A stretch of 60,168 nt of DNA, filler included, from Chloroflexota bacterium (GCA_043754535.1; 3 parts of 3 records of this genome joined end to end with filler, not necessarily neighbours in it); one strand, 5' to 3'. Positions 5,239 to 11,685 are shown, counted from the first letter of the whole stretch. A program made the numbers and translations. The notes: generated by a model not told the origin, from the sequence alone.

Positions 5239-8200
5239 TTGCTGCGTTGCCTGACCTGCCTGACCGAGAACCCACCCGGCTTCAAGTTCTGCCGCCAGTG
5301 CGGTACTCCCCTGACTACCCCACCCGAAGACGAGCGGCGGTTGATCACCGTGCTGTTCGCCGAGATCGCTGGTTTTGCCGCGATCAGCGAGCAACTACCG
5401 CCAGAGCGGGCGGGCGAATTGATTGATACCACCTACTCCGGCCTCGATTTGGTAGTCGCTACCTATGATGGTACGATTGACAAGTACATGGGCGACACGG
5501 TGATGGTGCTGTTTGGTGCGCCCCGCGCTCATGAGGACGACCCCGCCCGCGCCCTCCGCTGCGCCCTGGGGATGCTGGGCTGGGTAGCAGACTACAACGC
5601 CCGTAACGCGCACCTGCTCTCCCGCCCGCTGGCGATGAAGATTGGGGTAAACACGGGGCTGGTGGTCGCGGGCCGCTTTGGGGCCGACAGCCTGGGCCGC
5701 GCCTACAGCGTGATGGGCGATGCGGTCAATCTTGCTGCCCGCCTCCAGGGGATGGCCCAGCGCAATGAGGTGCTGGTTGGCGAGAGTAGCTACCAGCAGG
5801 CGCGGGTGCAGTTCGTCTGGCACGAACTAGGCAGCACTCCCGTGCGTGGCAAGGCGCAGGCGGTGTCGGTCTACCGCCTGGTCGCCGCCGAGCAGGAGAC
5901 TGGCACTGGGCGCGGCTTGCCTGGCCTCTACTCGTCGGTGGTTGGCCGCGAGTTGGAGACCACTGCGCTGGCCGAGGCGGTGGCTGACCTGCGCGGCGGT
6001 CGGGGCCGTATGGTCGCTCTCTTTAGCGAGGCTGGCTTGGGCAAGAGCCGCCTGTTGGACGAGGCTACTGCCGTGGCTGCGATTGGCGACCCTGCGATCC
6101 CCACCCTCTTTGGCCGCTGCCTCAACTATGGCGCGCAACGTGAGTACCAGCCCTGGCAGGATGTGATCCGCCGCCTGCTGGCGATCAGCAGCAGCGATGG
6201 TGCGCTGGCCCAGTTCGAGGCGGGCGCGACCCGGTTGGGGCTGAGCGAAGGCCAGGCGGCGGCGATCAGCCAGATGCTCGGCGTGGCGGCGGAGGCTGGC
6301 CCACGTAGCCCCGACGAGCAGGCCACTGAGGACGCTGCTGCTGTCGCTGCCCTGCTCCGGGCTGCCACCGCCAGCCGCCCCCTACTCGTCGCTCTGGAGG
6401 ACTTGCATTGGGCTGACCAGCCGACGCTGGCGATGCTGCCGCTGCTGCTGCCCCAATTGGCTGGGCTGCCGCTGCTGTTCGTCTGCACCAGCCGCCCTTA
6501 TGGTGCCGCCGCCGAGCGCATACGCGCCCTGGCCGCCAGCCTGCCGATGCAGAGCTTCGACCTACAACCGCTGACCGATGGCGAGGTGGACCACCTGCTC
6601 TGCAACCTGCTGGCGACCAACGCCCTGCCAGCGCAGGTCAGCGCGATCATGCTGGCGCGGGCAGCGGGCAACCCCTTCTACGTAGAGGAGTTCATTCGCA
6701 CCCTGATTGAGCGCGGCTGGATGATCGCCGAGGAGGGTGGCTGGCGGTTCATGGCCGGTGAGATGATGTTGGAGGTGCCGCCCACCTTGCAGGGCATGAT
6801 CGCCGCCCGCATCGACAGCCTGCCGCCCGGCCCCCGCCGCGCCTTGCAGGTCGCCAGCGTGCTGGGGCGCAGCTTCCAGCCAGATGTGCTGGCGGCCCTG
6901 GACGAGGCGGCGGCGCAAGCCCACAATCTCTTGCTGCTGGTTGAGCGGGCGGTGCTGCTGCCAGAGGATGATGGCCGCTACGCCTTCCGCCACACCCTCA
7001 CCCAGGAGGTGGCCTACAACACGCTGCTGATCGAACGGCGCAGGCAGTACCATGCCGCCGCCGCCAAGCACTACAGCGCGCAACCGCTGCTCGACCCGCC
7101 CCGCGCCGTCGGCGACCTCGAACCGCTGCTCGAAGCGGCCTACCACTACAGCATCGCGGGCGAGTTCCAGGCCGCCTACGAGTTGATCAACCGCGTGGTA
7201 GACAGCAAGGAGCAGATGCCCTTCTCACGGCGGATGTTCCTCTGGGGCGGGGCGGCGACGATGGTCGAAATCCTCAACCGCCTGGCCGCCCCCAACTCGC
7301 TGGCCGCTATCACCGCGGTGGCCCAGGCCGAAGTGCTGAGCATTCTAGGGCTAGCTTACTACTACCTGGGCAACTCCACCCTAGCCGCCCACTACTCTAA
7401 CCTGGCGGTGCCTATTGCCGAGGCCACCAACTACAGCGGGTTGGGTAGTATCTACAACCGCCTCGGTGTGATCTACGCCACCCTCGGCGACCTGCGTAAG
7501 GCAGTAGGCTACTACGAGCAGGCTCTGGCTGCAGCGGAGCGGAATGAGGACGTGCAGATAGTTGCACGCAGTCTGGTAAATCTGGGCTTGGCCCACTTGA
7601 AGTTGGGTGAGATGCGTTCGGCTAAGGAGTATACAGAGCGGGCATTGGTCTACAGTGAGCAATCTGGAGATTTGGACAACCAGAGTGCTTTGTTGAACAA
7701 TTTGGGTGTTCAGAACGTAGCCCTTGGGTACCTGCAAGTAGCCATAGGATATCACAAGCGATCTGTAGAGATCGCAGAGCAGGTGGGTAATTATGTTGGT
7801 AAGATAGAGGCACTGAACGATATTGGTGTAGCCTATCGCGACCAGGGCAATATTGAGGATGCTATCGCTGTTCACCAGCAAGCTCTCACTGCTGCTGAGA
7901 GTAGCTCAGACAGCGGTATTCGGGTTTCGGTGCTCACTTTGCTCGGTACCGACTACACCGCACAAGGCGAGTACGAGCTAGCACTAGCCTACCATAGGCA
8001 GGCACTCAACACCCTAGATAACATAAAGGATCCATTTGAGCGTGGCGAAATCCTGGGTGGTACTGGTAGAACCTATTTGGCAATGGGAGATTACAAGATG
8101 GCAAAGAATTATCATAAGCAAGCACTGCAATGCTTTTTTCAGATCGGTGATTTGATAAGACAGGCTAGCACGATGAACTCTCTGGCAGCAGACTACAACT

Positions 8201-8463
8201 CACTTGGCCGGCCAAATGCCGCACTTGGTTATGCTGTGAATGCCCTACAACTGGCTAAGAAGGTAGAAGCACCTCTGGTCACTGCCAGTGCTCATTACGA
8301 ACTTGGTCTCACGCAGCAATCTCTAGGCAATCTTGCGGCTGCGCGCAGTGCATACGAGGCTTCAATAGCCCTCCGCACTAAGTACCAGGATCGCAGATTG
8401 AAGAACAGTGAAGCTGCCCTCGCTTCGCTAACCACAGAAGGAAACCAGGCTGCCTCCAAATAG
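5239..8463 (+). CDS. Zn-ribbon / class III adenylate cyclase / AAA (STAND-like) ATPase / TPR protein
   Basis: CLTC..CRQC; VLFAEIAGF, DKYMGD, GDAVNLAARLQ; Walker A SEAGLGKS, Walker B LEDLHWAD; GNPFYVEE; many C-terminal TPRs. TTG start at 5239 chosen from the GGAGGAG RBS (ORF is open from 5197). Confidence 0.92.
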   Translation: MLRCLTCLTENPPGFKFCRQCGTPLTTPPEDERRLITVLFAEIAGFAAISEQLPPERAGELIDTTYSGLDLVVATYDGTIDKYMGDTVMVLFGAPRAHEDDPARALRCALGMLGWVADYNARNAHLLSRPLAMKIGVNTGLVVAGRFGADSLGRAYSVMGDAVNLAARLQGMAQRNEVLVGESSYQQARVQFVWHELGSTPVRGKAQAVSVYRLVAAEQETGTGRGLPGLYSSVVGRELETTALAEAVADLRGGRGRMVALFSEAGLGKSRLLDEATAVAAIGDPAIPTLFGRCLNYGAQREYQPWQDVIRRLLAISSSDGALAQFEAGATRLGLSEGQAAAISQMLGVAAEAGPRSPDEQATEDAAAVAALLRAATASRPLLVALEDLHWADQPTLAMLPLLLPQLAGLPLLFVCTSRPYGAAAERIRALAASLPMQSFDLQPLTDGEVDHLLCNLLATNALPAQVSAIMLARAAGNPFYVEEFIRTLIERGWMIAEEGGWRFMAGEMMLEVPPTLQGMIAARIDSLPPGPRRALQVASVLGRSFQPDVLAALDEAAAQAHNLLLLVERAVLLPEDDGRYAFRHTLTQEVAYNTLLIERRRQYHAAAAKHYSAQPLLDPPRAVGDLEPLLEAAYHYSIAGEFQAAYELINRVVDSKEQMPFSRRMFLWGGAATMVEILNRLAAPNSLAAITAVAQAEVLSILGLAYYYLGNSTLAAHYSNLAVPIAEATNYSGLGSIYNRLGVIYATLGDLRKAVGYYEQALAAAERNEDVQIVARSLVNLGLAHLKLGEMRSAKEYTERALVYSEQSGDLDNQSALLNNLGVQNVALGYLQVAIGYHKRSVEIAEQVGNYVGKIEALNDIGVAYRDQGNIEDAIAVHQQALTAAESSSDSGIRVSVLTLLGTDYTAQGEYELALAYHRQALNTLDNIKDPFERGEILGGTGRTYLAMGDYKMAKNYHKQALQCFFQIGDLIRQASTMNSLAADYNSLGRPNAALGYAVNALQLAKKVEAPLVTASAHYELGLTQQSLGNLAAARSAYEASIALRTKYQDRRLKNSEAALASLTTEGNQAASK

Positions 8464-8498
8464 GAGATGACCTGGCTTTCCTAACTTGACACTAGACC

Positions 8499-8627
8499 TC
8501 AGTTGATAGCCCAGCCACCACCACGATCCGGTTCGGGGTTGGTGCTGCAAACACCCCATGAACCACTGCGGTTTGGGTCGGGGTTGCCGCCGAGCAGGGT
8601 GACGAGGTGCGAAAGCCACTTAAACAT
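8499..8627 (-). CDS. 42-aa small peptide, putative signalling or precursor peptide (MFKWLSHLVTLLGG-NPDPNRSGSWGVCST-NPEPDRGGGWAIN)
   Basis: AAGGGGGGA RBS 6 nt before ATG; internal two-fold repeat; motif shared with the C-terminus of the upstream secreted protein; own TTGACA element. Confidence 0.7.
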   Translation of the reverse strand: MFKWLSHLVTLLGGNPDPNRSGSWGVCSTNPEPDRGGGWAIN

Positions 8628-8679
8628 GAGATGTCCCCCCTTGCGTTGTGGGTACAGGTTGTCGAAGGTCGGTAAGTAC

Positions 8680-8707
8680 ATTACACCACTGTTCCTGGTT
8701 CTGTCAA
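8680..8707 (-). promoter_or_regulatory. Putative promoter of the small peptide (TTGACA-N16-TGTAAT with TG extension)
   Basis: TTGACA at 8707-8702; imperfect -10. Confidence 0.45.
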
Positions 8708-8726
8708 TAGCTTTGTCCACATTTCA

Positions 8727-8760
8727 TCAAGAAGGCACCCTGCATTGCTGCGGGGTGCCT
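8727..8760 (-). terminator. Intrinsic terminator after the beta-propeller gene
   Basis: AGGCACCCCGCA-GCAA-TGCAGGGTGCCT hairpin followed by TCTTG. Confidence 0.6.
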
Positions 8761-8786
8761 CCTCTGTAACTGACTAGAGTGCTAGC

Positions 8787-9896
8787 TTAGCTGACAGACC
8801 AGGAGCCACTTCGGTCCATGACGATGAGAGTACCTCTATCACCAGTGGCCCAGATCAAGCCAGTACTGTCCTGCTTCATGTAGGTCATCGAGGCAGGAGT
8901 ACCCATGGTGCTAACAGACCATGAACCACTGCGATCCATGCTGACAGTTTTGCCCGCGCCAGTGATCGGGTCGTTGCCGAGGAACAGCACCATCGTGTCG
9001 GTGGGTGAGGTAGTGGCATTGATGCCAGCAGGCCGCATACTGCCAGCCAGCAGGCCACCAGCGAGTGCGCCGCTCGGTCGGTAGCCGCCAGTAGCCCGAA
9101 AGTCAATGACCGCCTTGCCGCTGCCTACGTTGATGCCAGGCACTACTGCCCACACCCCGTTGGTGACGCTGACTAGGGTGCCGTCGGTGGCAACCACGTA
9201 GCCGTTGGTCGGGTCGGACATATAGATGTCCTTGAAGTCGAGGGTCTGGGTGATGCCAGTGTTGATCACCGTCCAGTTCTGCACGGTGGCGTTGCAGTCA
9301 CAACGCCAGACGGTCTTGTTCTGGCCGACGACGAAGCCCGCCCAGCTGTTGCCGTTGGGAACCATCATGCCGCCGTAGATGTTGTTGGTCGAGATGGGGG
9401 TGTTGGGGTAGTTGTACCACTTGCCGTCGTCCCAGCGGATCAGCACGGTACCAGCGTCGCCAAGAGCGATAACGTAGCCGCTGGCCCCCAGGCTGACGTT
9501 GTTGAGGTTACGGTTGGTGGGGCTGTTCTTGGCCTTCTTCCACTGGTCGTGGTCGCTGTCGAACTCGTAAATCTTGCCGCCATTGCCGACTGCGTAGCCG
9601 CTGCTGGCATTGGTCATGATCATCGAGTTGAGCAGGTCGCCGCCAGTGCTTTGCGCGACGTTCCAGGTGCCGGTGCTGCTCTGCTTGAGGATCACGCCGC
9701 TGTTGCCGCTGCGACCCAACGCCCAGCCGGTGCCAGTGGTAGGTACCTGAGCAGGGAAGGCACTATCGTAGAGCGTACCAGAGTAGGCGACCGGCTGGCC
9801 ACCCTTGTGGCCGCCCGCGAAGGCGATGCTGGTGGTCGAGATGAGGGTGAGGACAAAGACGATAAGAGCAAGTTTGTACAGGCGAGAATGTGACAT
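8787..9896 (-). CDS. Secreted beta-propeller (WD40/YVTN/BNR-like, Ycf48-like repeats) protein
   Basis: Sec signal peptide (AFA); repeated GW/GYAVG..G.I...W blades; ends with MDRSGSWSVS twice; RBS GGGAGGAG. Confidence 0.8.
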   Translation of the reverse strand: MSHSRLYKLALIVFVLTLISTTSIAFAGGHKGGQPVAYSGTLYDSAFPAQVPTTGTGWALGRSGNSGVILKQSSTGTWNVAQSTGGDLLNSMIMTNASSGYAVGNGGKIYEFDSDHDQWKKAKNSPTNRNLNNVSLGASGYVIALGDAGTVLIRWDDGKWYNYPNTPISTNNIYGGMMVPNGNSWAGFVVGQNKTVWRCDCNATVQNWTVINTGITQTLDFKDIYMSDPTNGYVVATDGTLVSVTNGVWAVVPGINVGSGKAVIDFRATGGYRPSGALAGGLLAGSMRPAGINATTSPTDTMVLFLGNDPITGAGKTVSMDRSGSWSVSTMGTPASMTYMKQDSTGLIWATGDRGTLIVMDRSGSWSVS

Positions 9897-10054: not shown

Positions 10055-10083
10055 ATTCTACCTGGTATTGTCCTTGCTGTCAA
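10055..10083 (-). promoter_or_regulatory. Sigma70-type promoter of the beta-propeller gene
   Basis: TTGACA-N17-TAGAAT. Confidence 0.7.
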
Positions 10084-10525: not shown

Positions 10526-11281
10526 ATGTTTGATAGCGGCTTCTTTGGTATTGGTATCCCCGAAATGATCATCATTGCCATCGTCGCCCTCGTCTTTATC
10601 GGCCCGGAGCGGCTTCCTGGGGTGCTACGCAACCTGGGCAACACCATCGCCAACCTGCGCAGTGGGACGGATGGTCTGCGGCAGGAGTTCCTCGCCTCAA
10701 TGGCCGAGGTACGTGGCCCCCTGGAGGAGTTGCGCGCCCCATTCGAGGAGTTGCGCGCCCCGTTCGAGGAGGTACGCTCTGCCCTTGCTGGGGTGCAGAG
10801 CGACGGTCGCCGCACGCTGGAGGAGCTGCGCCAACTCTACAGCAACCCCGCTGCCGAGCCTCTGGGCGCAAACGAAGCTTACCTGGTCGAGGCTGGTGGC
10901 CCAAGCAGTGCCAGCCCGCGACCCGCCGCTATCGAGCCGAGCAGTGTGCCGCAACCTGCCGCTATCGAGCCGAGCAGCGTGCCGCAGCCAACCAGCCCAG
11001 TTTCAGCAGGCGATCATGCGGTGCGGCCCAGCCGCCGCGTGCGCCGTGTCCCCCAACGGAAGCCGCTAGCCCCGCTTGCCCCACCTGGGCTGAACGGCAG
11101 CAAGGGGGCGCACGAGCAGCAGTCTGGTGGGCAGAAGACGGACGATCTACCCCTCTTTGGCAGCAACATCGCCCTGATGAGTGAGACGGCGCACGCAGGC
11201 GGCGACACGGCGTTATGGCTGTCTACGCCCTCTACCGCGAGCCAGCAGTCGGGCAGCCCGGTGTCTACCGCAACACGCTAG
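10526..11281 (+). CDS. Twin-arginine translocase TatA/TatB family subunit with long disordered tail
   Basis: FGIGIPEMIIIAIVALVFIGPERLP; TGGTATAAT at 10482-10490. Confidence 0.82.
   Translation: MFDSGFFGIGIPEMIIIAIVALVFIGPERLPGVLRNLGNTIANLRSGTDGLRQEFLASMAEVRGPLEELRAPFEELRAPFEEVRSALAGVQSDGRRTLEELRQLYSNPAAEPLGANEAYLVEAGGPSSASPRPAAIEPSSVPQPAAIEPSSVPQPTSPVSAGDHAVRPSRRVRRVPQRKPLAPLAPPGLNGSKGAHEQQSGGQKTDDLPLFGSNIALMSETAHAGGDTALWLSTPSTASQQSGSPVSTATR
10703..10987 (+). repeat. In-frame tandem repeats in the TatB-like gene (21-bp EELRAPF units; two 33-bp PAAIEPSSVPQ units)
   Basis: GAGGAGTTGCGCGCCCCRTTC at 10724 and 10745; 33-bp units at 10922 and 10955. Confidence 0.9.
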
Positions 11282-11685
11282 TGGTCGCTCAGGATGAGAA
11301 TGGTAGCATAGCAGTGCGCGCCCTGGACGACCAGCTTGAGGCTAGCTGGCGAGAGCGTTTGGCAGGTGGTGAACTGTGCTATTTCGATGGCGGTAGCTGG
11401 TCGCTGCGCTGCCTCTCCACCGCCGACCCAAACTTCTTCCACGCCCTGGCTATCGCGCTGCACTATGGCCGCGCCCACCTCGGCCCACCCAGCCAGCTTG
11501 ACGGCGTGGATGCCGAAGCCGCCGCTGCCGACGTGTTCAAGCACCAGGTCGCTCCCGCCCACCTCTGGCGCGTGCTGCCTGGTGGTGAAGCTGAGCTGCT
11601 ACGTCCCTTAGCGGCCAGCAATCAAACGATGGTCATGAACTTCATCGCCCCGATCCAGAGCGACTTGCCGCCGTCGGGCGAGTAG
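11215..11685 (+). CDS. Hypothetical protein
   Basis: Protein-like ORF following the tatB-like gene; alternative GTG start at 11281 overlaps the upstream stop. Confidence 0.5.
   Translation: MAVYALYREPAVGQPGVYRNTLVVAQDENGSIAVRALDDQLEASWRERLAGGELCYFDGGSWSLRCLSTADPNFFHALAIALHYGRAHLGPPSQLDGVDAEAAAADVFKHQVAPAHLWRVLPGGEAELLRPLAASNQTMVMNFIAPIQSDLPPSGE

Follow-up and report, generated by a model that had tools for sequence, protein, structure and literature searches.

A secreted propeller, a two-copy peptide gene and a cyclase-STAND-TPR protein form a cassette-like locus in one family of Chloroflexota

Does a bacterial STAND protein with C-terminal TPRs read a motif that recurs in the two genes beside it? 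The question is raised by positions 5,239 to 9,896 of a 60,168-nucleotide stretch, filler included, from a Chloroflexota bacterium (GCA_043754535.1). The whole stretch, three parts of the genome joined end to end, is here called the window; its positions 1-26210 are a single contig, and the sequence past 26210 is not contiguous with the locus. An earlier interpretation made from the DNA alone (the sequence-only reading) had placed three open reading frames (ORFs) here, and all three stand where it put them (Table 1): a gene for a large cyclase-STAND-TPR protein (the receptor), a gene for a 42-aa peptide whose stop lies 35 bp from the receptor stop, and a gene for a secreted beta-propeller. We observe that the small gene is real, that receptor and propeller remain linked, that the motif has been amplified and that the locus diverges in the manner of a cassette. 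The reading we favour, about evenly balanced between right and wrong, is an allelic recognition cassette confined to one family, with the TPR as reader of the DRxGxW motif and the peptide as a later ligand or decoy.

The four motif copies noticed at the outset are all that the genome holds in strict form: the pattern [DN]R[SG]G[SG]W[SGA] has four matches in 7.7 million six-frame residues, all at the locus. A looser pattern gives nine genome matches, five of them outside the locus in short frames of 18-129 codons. The propeller carries two of the strict copies. In an AlphaFold2 model from a 7-row alignment (mean pLDDT 76) it forms seven four-stranded blades, and the motif is the hairpin between strands 3 and 4 (c and d) of blades 6 and 7, in Asp-box register. 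Foldseek matches the model to 7-bladed propellers including YCF48, and an atlas search also gives YCF48/BNR-like propellers; the NCBIfam Ycf48 match is below its cut-off.

Comparison was made across five genomes of one family, 83-89% complete: the source genome (G000, 88.9% complete), a sister species in the same genus (G001) and three further members (G002-G004). The blade-6 core D-R-x-G-x-W is invariant in all six full-length propellers, and in blades 1-5 Trp alone is invariant. Strand 3 of blade 7 is the last in three of the six. The remaining three, from G000, G001 and P0013 (the last 38% identical), add a terminal hairpin that equals their own blade-6 copy at 10 of 10 residues. These tailed propellers are 38-88% identical to one another, with motif ends of the WSVS, WSIN and WFID types. 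Other blade pairs within propellers share at most 6 of 10 residues, and blade-6 copies compared between proteins share 4-7 of 10. The hairpin thus has a fixed core and lineage-specific flanks; it is repeated at the C-terminus in one branch and carried by a separate two-copy peptide in one genus. The twin propeller copies differ at five bases in G000 and seven in G001, with no residue change. Codons are shared between genes: TCA/GTT occur in the internal propeller copy and peptide copy 1 of G000, AGC/ATC in both in G001, and the G001 propeller end and last peptide end have 21 identical bases across the stop. The shared choices suggest that some gene conversion takes place too. Because codons are shared while the twins differ in bases and not in residues, both DNA exchange and selection act on the copies. 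Since the twins are identical within each protein yet differ between proteins, the motif sequence is probably read by something.

The 42-aa gene is a real gene, with its own promoter and ribosome site, an upstream terminator, purifying selection and a duplicate in the sister species. It had been described as unannotated; it carries no name in public collections, but is already called there. Between G000 and G001 the small ORF is conserved under selection in the peptide frame only (synonymous differences, pS, 0.41; nonsynonymous, pN, 0.095; Fisher P 2e-4), and in three other frames tested over the gene pS about equals pN. The leader is nearly invariant. An N-P-D/E-P spacer (N-P-D-P or N-P-E-P) precedes each motif copy, and the cores match the propeller hairpin at E 2e-5. 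All 200 shuffles of the 5' leader of the transcript fold at least as stably as the leader itself, and none of 200 shuffles equals the terminator hairpin (z -4.2). A consensus promoter scan did not list the peptide promoter, which matches the common form of other GCTATTGACA sites in the genome, most of 20 being then followed by a -10-like box. A regulator box shared by the peptide and propeller promoters was considered and rejected, being this general promoter form. Descent of the leader from blade 6 was likewise rejected: it lands there in both genomes, yet 819 and 481 of 2000 shuffles score equally. In the single RNA run, which held 5% of the words of the stretch, the pieces covered parts of the propeller and none covered the peptide gene.

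The sister species has a tandem duplication of the peptide unit (G001 L002:2629-3131) whose junction lies inside the motif. In its first copy the terminator and promoter are lost and a spacer Pro is changed to Leu; because of the two losses, this copy is probably co-transcribed with the propeller.

Orthologues of the propeller occur in 5 of 401 class genomes and those of the receptor in 5 of 151, and the five genomes are the same ones. The adjacency described for the window recurs, tail-to-tail, in all four readable genomes (G000-G003), and the ORFs flanking the pair differ in the second genus. In G004 receptor and propeller both run off contig ends at their 3' ends, so the gap is unreadable. 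The scan of homologous intergenic DNA proposed at the outset finds the peptide gene in G000 and G001 and not in G002 or G003. Neither the gap of G002 nor that of G003 holds a relic of the peptide unit (102, 225 and 241 of 300 shuffles are equally good), and weak profile matches at C71 and C74 are chance frames. No relatives of the peptide outside the genus were found in the family genomes or the protein collection, where the peptide profile retrieved only two known clusters, among 2 candidates; an atlas search for wider relatives gave no usable match. Full-length propeller matches among GTDB genomes number four, all metagenome-assembled genomes of Chloroflexia/Chloroflexi, and beyond the family only generic YCF48/BNR repeats appear. 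The stretch is contained in metagenome runs from sediment, glacier and freshwater. A metagenome scan returned one locus, from a strain 99.6% identical, and a viral scan one partial generic match. Contigs of low depth from run X12 span the end of the propeller gene and the promoter region of the peptide gene; among the 15 differences listed, 10 carry the G001 letter, a hint of a third strain.

The receptor diverges most in its putative sensor. From G000 to G001 identity is 95% before the TPR and 76% within it (P 2e-20), with fourfold-site divergence of 0.13 and 0.42; from G002 to G004 the values are 87% and 60% (P 3e-23), and 0.33 and 0.71. The nearest paralogue pair is flat (92% versus 93%), with no TPR split. 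Ranked by divergence among 878 windows in 170 orthologues of at least 70% identity (429 kb of G001 in 22 stretches, about a tenth of the genome), the TPR windows come first and second. The drop in GC at third codon positions (GC3) along the receptor ORF is the largest among 319 long ORFs and is seen in all five orthologues. The diverged block continues through the peptide gene (pS 0.41) and the 3' end of the propeller gene (pS 0.42). This island has a GC of 0.48-0.58 against about 0.68 upstream, and a synonymous divergence of 0.41-0.47 against a median of 0.16.

A tree of the TPR part is star-like and does not resolve; that of the ATPase part does. Near-identical strains show no excess in the TPR, which holds 3 of 44 mismatches in 1137 of 10391 bp, with no residue change among five cluster members; this argues against a mutation hot spot. 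We infer that the block consists of old alleles which persist or are exchanged whole, homologous recombination within it being rare. The low GC fits, as non-recombining bacterial genes have lower GC (PMC4450053), and a lower-GC donor of the block is also conceivable. A diversity-generating retroelement was rejected: there is no RVT_1 match in the genome (88.9% complete) and no template repeat, and the changes are not adenine-specific. The two rankings held other entries. The sites G000:C82:28206 and C130:5658 (+) are also highly diverged from G001 (fourfold-site 0.41-0.49, 73-80% identity), and second in GC3 drop is a Rhs-type ORF of 758 aa on the minus strand of G000:C36, near the contig start, with a variable low-GC C-terminal tip; from YD repeats and a core end motif, labelled by eye, it is probably a polymorphic toxin.

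The receptor has the STAND arrangement, a P-loop ATPase between an N-terminal effector and C-terminal repeats. Its domains are a zinc ribbon (below cut-off), PF00211, AAA_16 (PF13191, E 1e-17) and TPR_12 (PF13424, E 2e-42), and Walker A and B are retained in the four orthologues tabulated. The 1074-aa form with its TTG start has a purine-rich site upstream and is the form in the protein collection. By sequence, the best solved relatives of the TPR are the peptide-binding repeats of LGN/GPSM2, and to judge by this likeness it is of their type; a match to RNPP_C (21.8 bits) is under the 26.5 cut-off. There are five other full-length cyclase-ATPase-TPR paralogues in the genome, two with a fully canonical cyclase site, and none has a motif peptide or propeller beside it among the neighbour rows listed. 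The closest, at G000:C98:19461-22682, is 47% identical over its full length, has Asn at the first metal-binding Asp position and served as a control: its GC3 is normal, and a neighbouring propeller or peptide is absent. Downstream of another (G000:C48, 108229-111576) lie four consecutive short ORFs that by eye are peroxiredoxin-like (thioredoxin fold, CxxC).

How far does the locus resemble known peptide systems? RRNPP pairs (Rap-Phr, NprR-NprX, PlcR-PapR, AimR-AimP) likewise pair a cytoplasmic TPR protein with a small peptide gene immediately next to its own. The type is described by a propeptide of 10-100 aa, Sec (or SHP/PptAB) export, a receptor of 250-500 aa, TPRs and adjacent genes (PMC10075063). 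Here the propeptide has 42 aa and the receptor has TPRs; receptor and peptide genes adjoin in G000 and G001, and the gaps of G002 and G003 hold no peptide gene. At 1074 aa the receptor is outside the stated range, and the locus, which had been likened to RRNPP, is not a member. Its receptor is a STAND protein without a DNA-binding or phosphatase domain, the genes face each other, the peptide has no clear Sec signal, a secreted protein with a fold of its own also bears the motif, and the phylum is not Bacillota. Among RRNPP systems there are precedents both for pheromones in tandem and for duplication of the peptide gene (PMC11343458; PMC9765709). In the PrgX system of Enterococcus pCF10 the look-alike peptides cCF10 and iCF10, from a large exported protein and a small gene, compete for one receptor (PMC7117660; PMC5552905). 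The likeness is a motif found both in a large exported protein and in a small dedicated gene. The pheromone there is cut from a signal peptide encoded elsewhere, whereas the candidate here would be a hairpin from a blade of the mature protein, encoded in the same cassette, and the competition described is that of PrgX.

Antiviral STAND (Avs) proteins share the effector-ATPase-repeat architecture of the cyclase-STAND-TPR proteins, and the C-terminal repeats of Avs5 sense a protein ligand (PMC12931631). PADLOC gave no match to an Avs model; what it did return was a generic TPR model, incomplete matches to the PycC cyclase and a single weak model of no relation. The in-genome paralogues differ from the receptor in having no neighbouring propeller, motif peptide or low-GC TPR. 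In the agrBDC cassettes of Staphylococcus and comQXP of Bacillus, which use membrane histidine kinases and modified peptides, a diverged block with conserved flanks on either side takes in the receptor's sensor part, the gene of the peptide and a portion of a third gene. The block described here has the same composition; alleles within one species are not seen among the near-identical strains compared. A literature search on low GC in comQXP found nothing useful. Asp-box (BNR) and YCF48-like propellers share the 7-bladed fold and a D/N...W hairpin between strands 3 and 4. Here, in contrast, the D-R-x-G-x-W form is limited to blades 6 and 7, the last blade bears such a hairpin itself, and a free peptide repeats the hairpin. 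Searches of an open-access library, at the level of listings, showed no peptide-gated STAND cyclase and no paper that names a ligand of a cyclase-STAND-TPR protein.

Under the favoured cassette reading, the propeller would be the ancestral source of the motif, and all copies in one genome would have to fit one lineage-specific reader. The simplest candidate would be the adjacent TPR, whose best solved relatives bind peptides. The propeller hairpin may reach the cytoplasm as an imported fragment, by proteolysis and Opp import (the genome has five OppA-type binding proteins), or upon failed export. The peptide, a later dedicated two-copy ligand or decoy, may stay cytoplasmic. Motif binding would be what switches the ATPase of the STAND protein. 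Simple cAMP synthesis is probably not the output; the cyclase-like domain may have weak activity, or may serve as a module for dimerisation or for regulating a partner. A more tentative proposal, to which we give rather less than an even chance, is an NLR-like STAND receptor for allele-specific self/non-self recognition, whose propeller hairpin was doubled at the C-terminus and then passed into a two-copy peptide gene. If true, this would capture, in three steps, how a folded protein gave rise to a peptide signal.

Several observations weigh against a TPR that reads the motif, or against the sequence-only reading. The peptide gene is present in two of the five family genomes, or two of the four with a readable gap, and the TPR is equally diverged in the genus where it was not found; the peptide by itself can therefore not be what drives this divergence. 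Variability is no higher at groove-facing positions, as assigned by TPR numbering, than at the rest (9 of 48 differ against 70 of 272 elsewhere, P 0.37), and the groove residues are largely common to peptide-less relatives. Propeller and TPR sit in different compartments. By hydropathy the short, amphipathic leader shows no clear Sec-type export signal (best 8-residue stretch 1.8-2.2 against 3.6 for the propeller signal). It has GG at residues 13-14, but the genome (88.9% complete) gave no match to a C39 peptidase/exporter (PF03412). Gene conversion, suggested by the shared codons, is able to homogenise copies without any reader. The motif also fits a known structural hairpin type, the Asp-box, (S/t)-x-(D/n)-x-G-x-(T/s)-(W/f/y) between strands 3 and 4 (PMC2716378): the G001 blade-6 copy is a full match, with the hairpin position taken from the model, and the G000 copies have D/N and W in register, the Gly being shifted by one in three of four. 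The propeller tail, which the sequence-only reading would clip off as a free peptide, is modelled as strand 4 of blade 7 and is thus probably a blade strand. The five genomes belong to a single family whose members are not independent, and the P0013 propeller comes without genomic context.

The cyclase site bears on the proposed output. Class III cyclases use two metal-binding Asp, a substrate Lys and Thr/Ser/Asp, and transition-state Asn and Arg. At positions taken from alignment to CyaB, the first Asp is Glu in G000 and G001, and the Asn and Arg are Thr and Gln in G002 and G004, so that the site is non-canonical in four of four readable orthologues (the G003 domain is off the contig). Since non-canonical cyclases can still be active, these changes make activity less likely without excluding it. 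For this reason cyclic-nucleotide output, which had been proposed as what the peptide controls, is doubtful. A co-fold of the TPR and residues 13-42 of the peptide, from alignments of 7 rows (380 aa) and 3 rows, scored 0.01 against a mark of 0.32 and counts neither for nor against binding. The proposal of peptide sensing is borne out as to the gene, the linkage and a diverged TPR of peptide-binding type, and is weakened by a peptide found at half of the readable loci and by TPR divergence that does not depend on it.

The strongest alternative, possible though on balance doubtful, is that something other than the TPR reads the motif and that some separate ligand is what makes the TPR diverge, as in antiviral STAND sensors of the Avs-like kind. 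The peptide would mimic the propeller edge hairpin and act on the propeller, through strand exchange at the slot that closes blade 7, or on an outside partner, for instance a phage protein or protease, and the three genes would share a recombined block by linkage only. The modelling of the motif as strands c-d of blades 6 and 7 suits this, as do a TPR divergence independent of the peptide gene and a groove that is not preferentially variable. Asp-box propellers normally close with the N-terminal strand in the fourth slot of the last blade (PMC2716378), so that the added tail would compete for that slot; both segments are modelled with middling confidence (pLDDT 63-71), and a single-sequence model of the tail-less G002 propeller, at pLDDT 39, is too poor to use. 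Alone, however, this alternative leaves the adjacency of propeller and receptor amid changing flanking ORFs unexplained; nor did any PADLOC Avs model match, and the neighbourhood in the family scans is metabolic, not a defence island.

It is unlikely that tail and small ORF are by-products of repeated short gene conversions or duplications among 30-bp look-alikes, without a signalling role, the identity of the copies coming from DNA exchange and structural constraint. Such exchange would account for the codons matched between propeller and peptide, the 21 common bases and the duplication junction within the motif. Purifying selection on the peptide frame only, an intact promoter, ribosome site and terminator, a nearly invariant leader, and twins that vary in bases with no residue change speak against it. 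Very improbable is a two-core precursor of a modified (RiPP/bacteriocin-like) peptide unrelated to the STAND protein, cut after GG and trimmed at X-Pro spacers, as the GG leader, the proline spacers and the Trp in the cores might suggest, given the missing C39 match, no modifying enzyme among the neighbours scanned and cores that match the propeller hairpin.

We return to the proposed cassette read by its TPR. The locus is real, unusual and narrowly distributed; provided that binding holds, it would be a variant form of peptide-TPR signalling. Proteins of the cyclase-STAND-TPR kind are common (this genome has six at full length), and the locus offers a cheaply synthesised candidate ligand for one, in two or more natural allele pairs, so that the activation of such a protein can be put to a direct test. 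If the reading is true, peptide-TPR signalling would extend from RRNPP regulators to NLR-like ATPases outside Bacillota, and the locus would show how a hairpin on the surface of a secreted protein can give rise to a peptide signal. If it is wrong, one still has to explain why a motif of 10 residues is kept the same in two blades, in proteins only 38% identical, and has been copied into a mini-gene under selection.

Table 1. Features of the locus and of the window, in window coordinates
Feature	Position	Strand	Remarks
Zinc-ribbon / class III cyclase-like / STAND ATPase / TPR protein	5239..8463	+	1074 aa; TTG start
Cyclase-like domain	5341..5862	+	first metal-binding Asp position is Glu, codon 5362-5364
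AAA_16 (STAND-type) ATPase domain	5938..6483	+	
TPR sensor region (putative)	7324..8460	+	low GC3; leading repeat and eight 40-residue repeats with Asn ladder
Low-GC, high-divergence island	7350..9000		no strand; spans TPR, peptide gene and propeller 3' end
42-aa peptide gene	8499..8627	-	14-residue amphipathic leader ending GG, then two motif copies
Peptide motif copy 2, DRGGGWAIN	8502..8528	-	C-terminal
Peptide motif copy 1, NRSGSWGVC	8547..8573	-	
Peptide-gene ribosome-binding site	8633..8643	-	unstructured 5' leader; AAGGAGG in G001
Peptide-gene promoter	8680..8711	-	GCTA-TTGACA, 16 nt, TGTAAT; TATAAT in G001
Terminator-like hairpin	8729..8764	-	closes propeller gene, upstream of peptide gene; -29.6 kcal/mol
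Secreted 7-bladed YCF48/BNR-like beta-propeller	8787..9896	-	369 aa; hydrophobic N-terminal signal region, about residues 1-27
Blade-7 hairpin / C-terminus, MDRSGSWSVS	8790..8819	-	residues 360-369
Blade-6 hairpin, MDRSGSWSVS	8910..8939	-	internal, residues 320-329
Propeller-gene promoter	10055..10083	-	TTGACA-17-TAGAAT; consensus match 11/12
N runs marking contig joins	26211-26310 and 34684-34783		

Beyond the propeller promoter, a TatA/B-like gene with a long low-complexity tail (window positions 10526-11281) overlaps a 156-aa ORF of no known family (11215-11685); at this overlap the reading frames run differently in G001.

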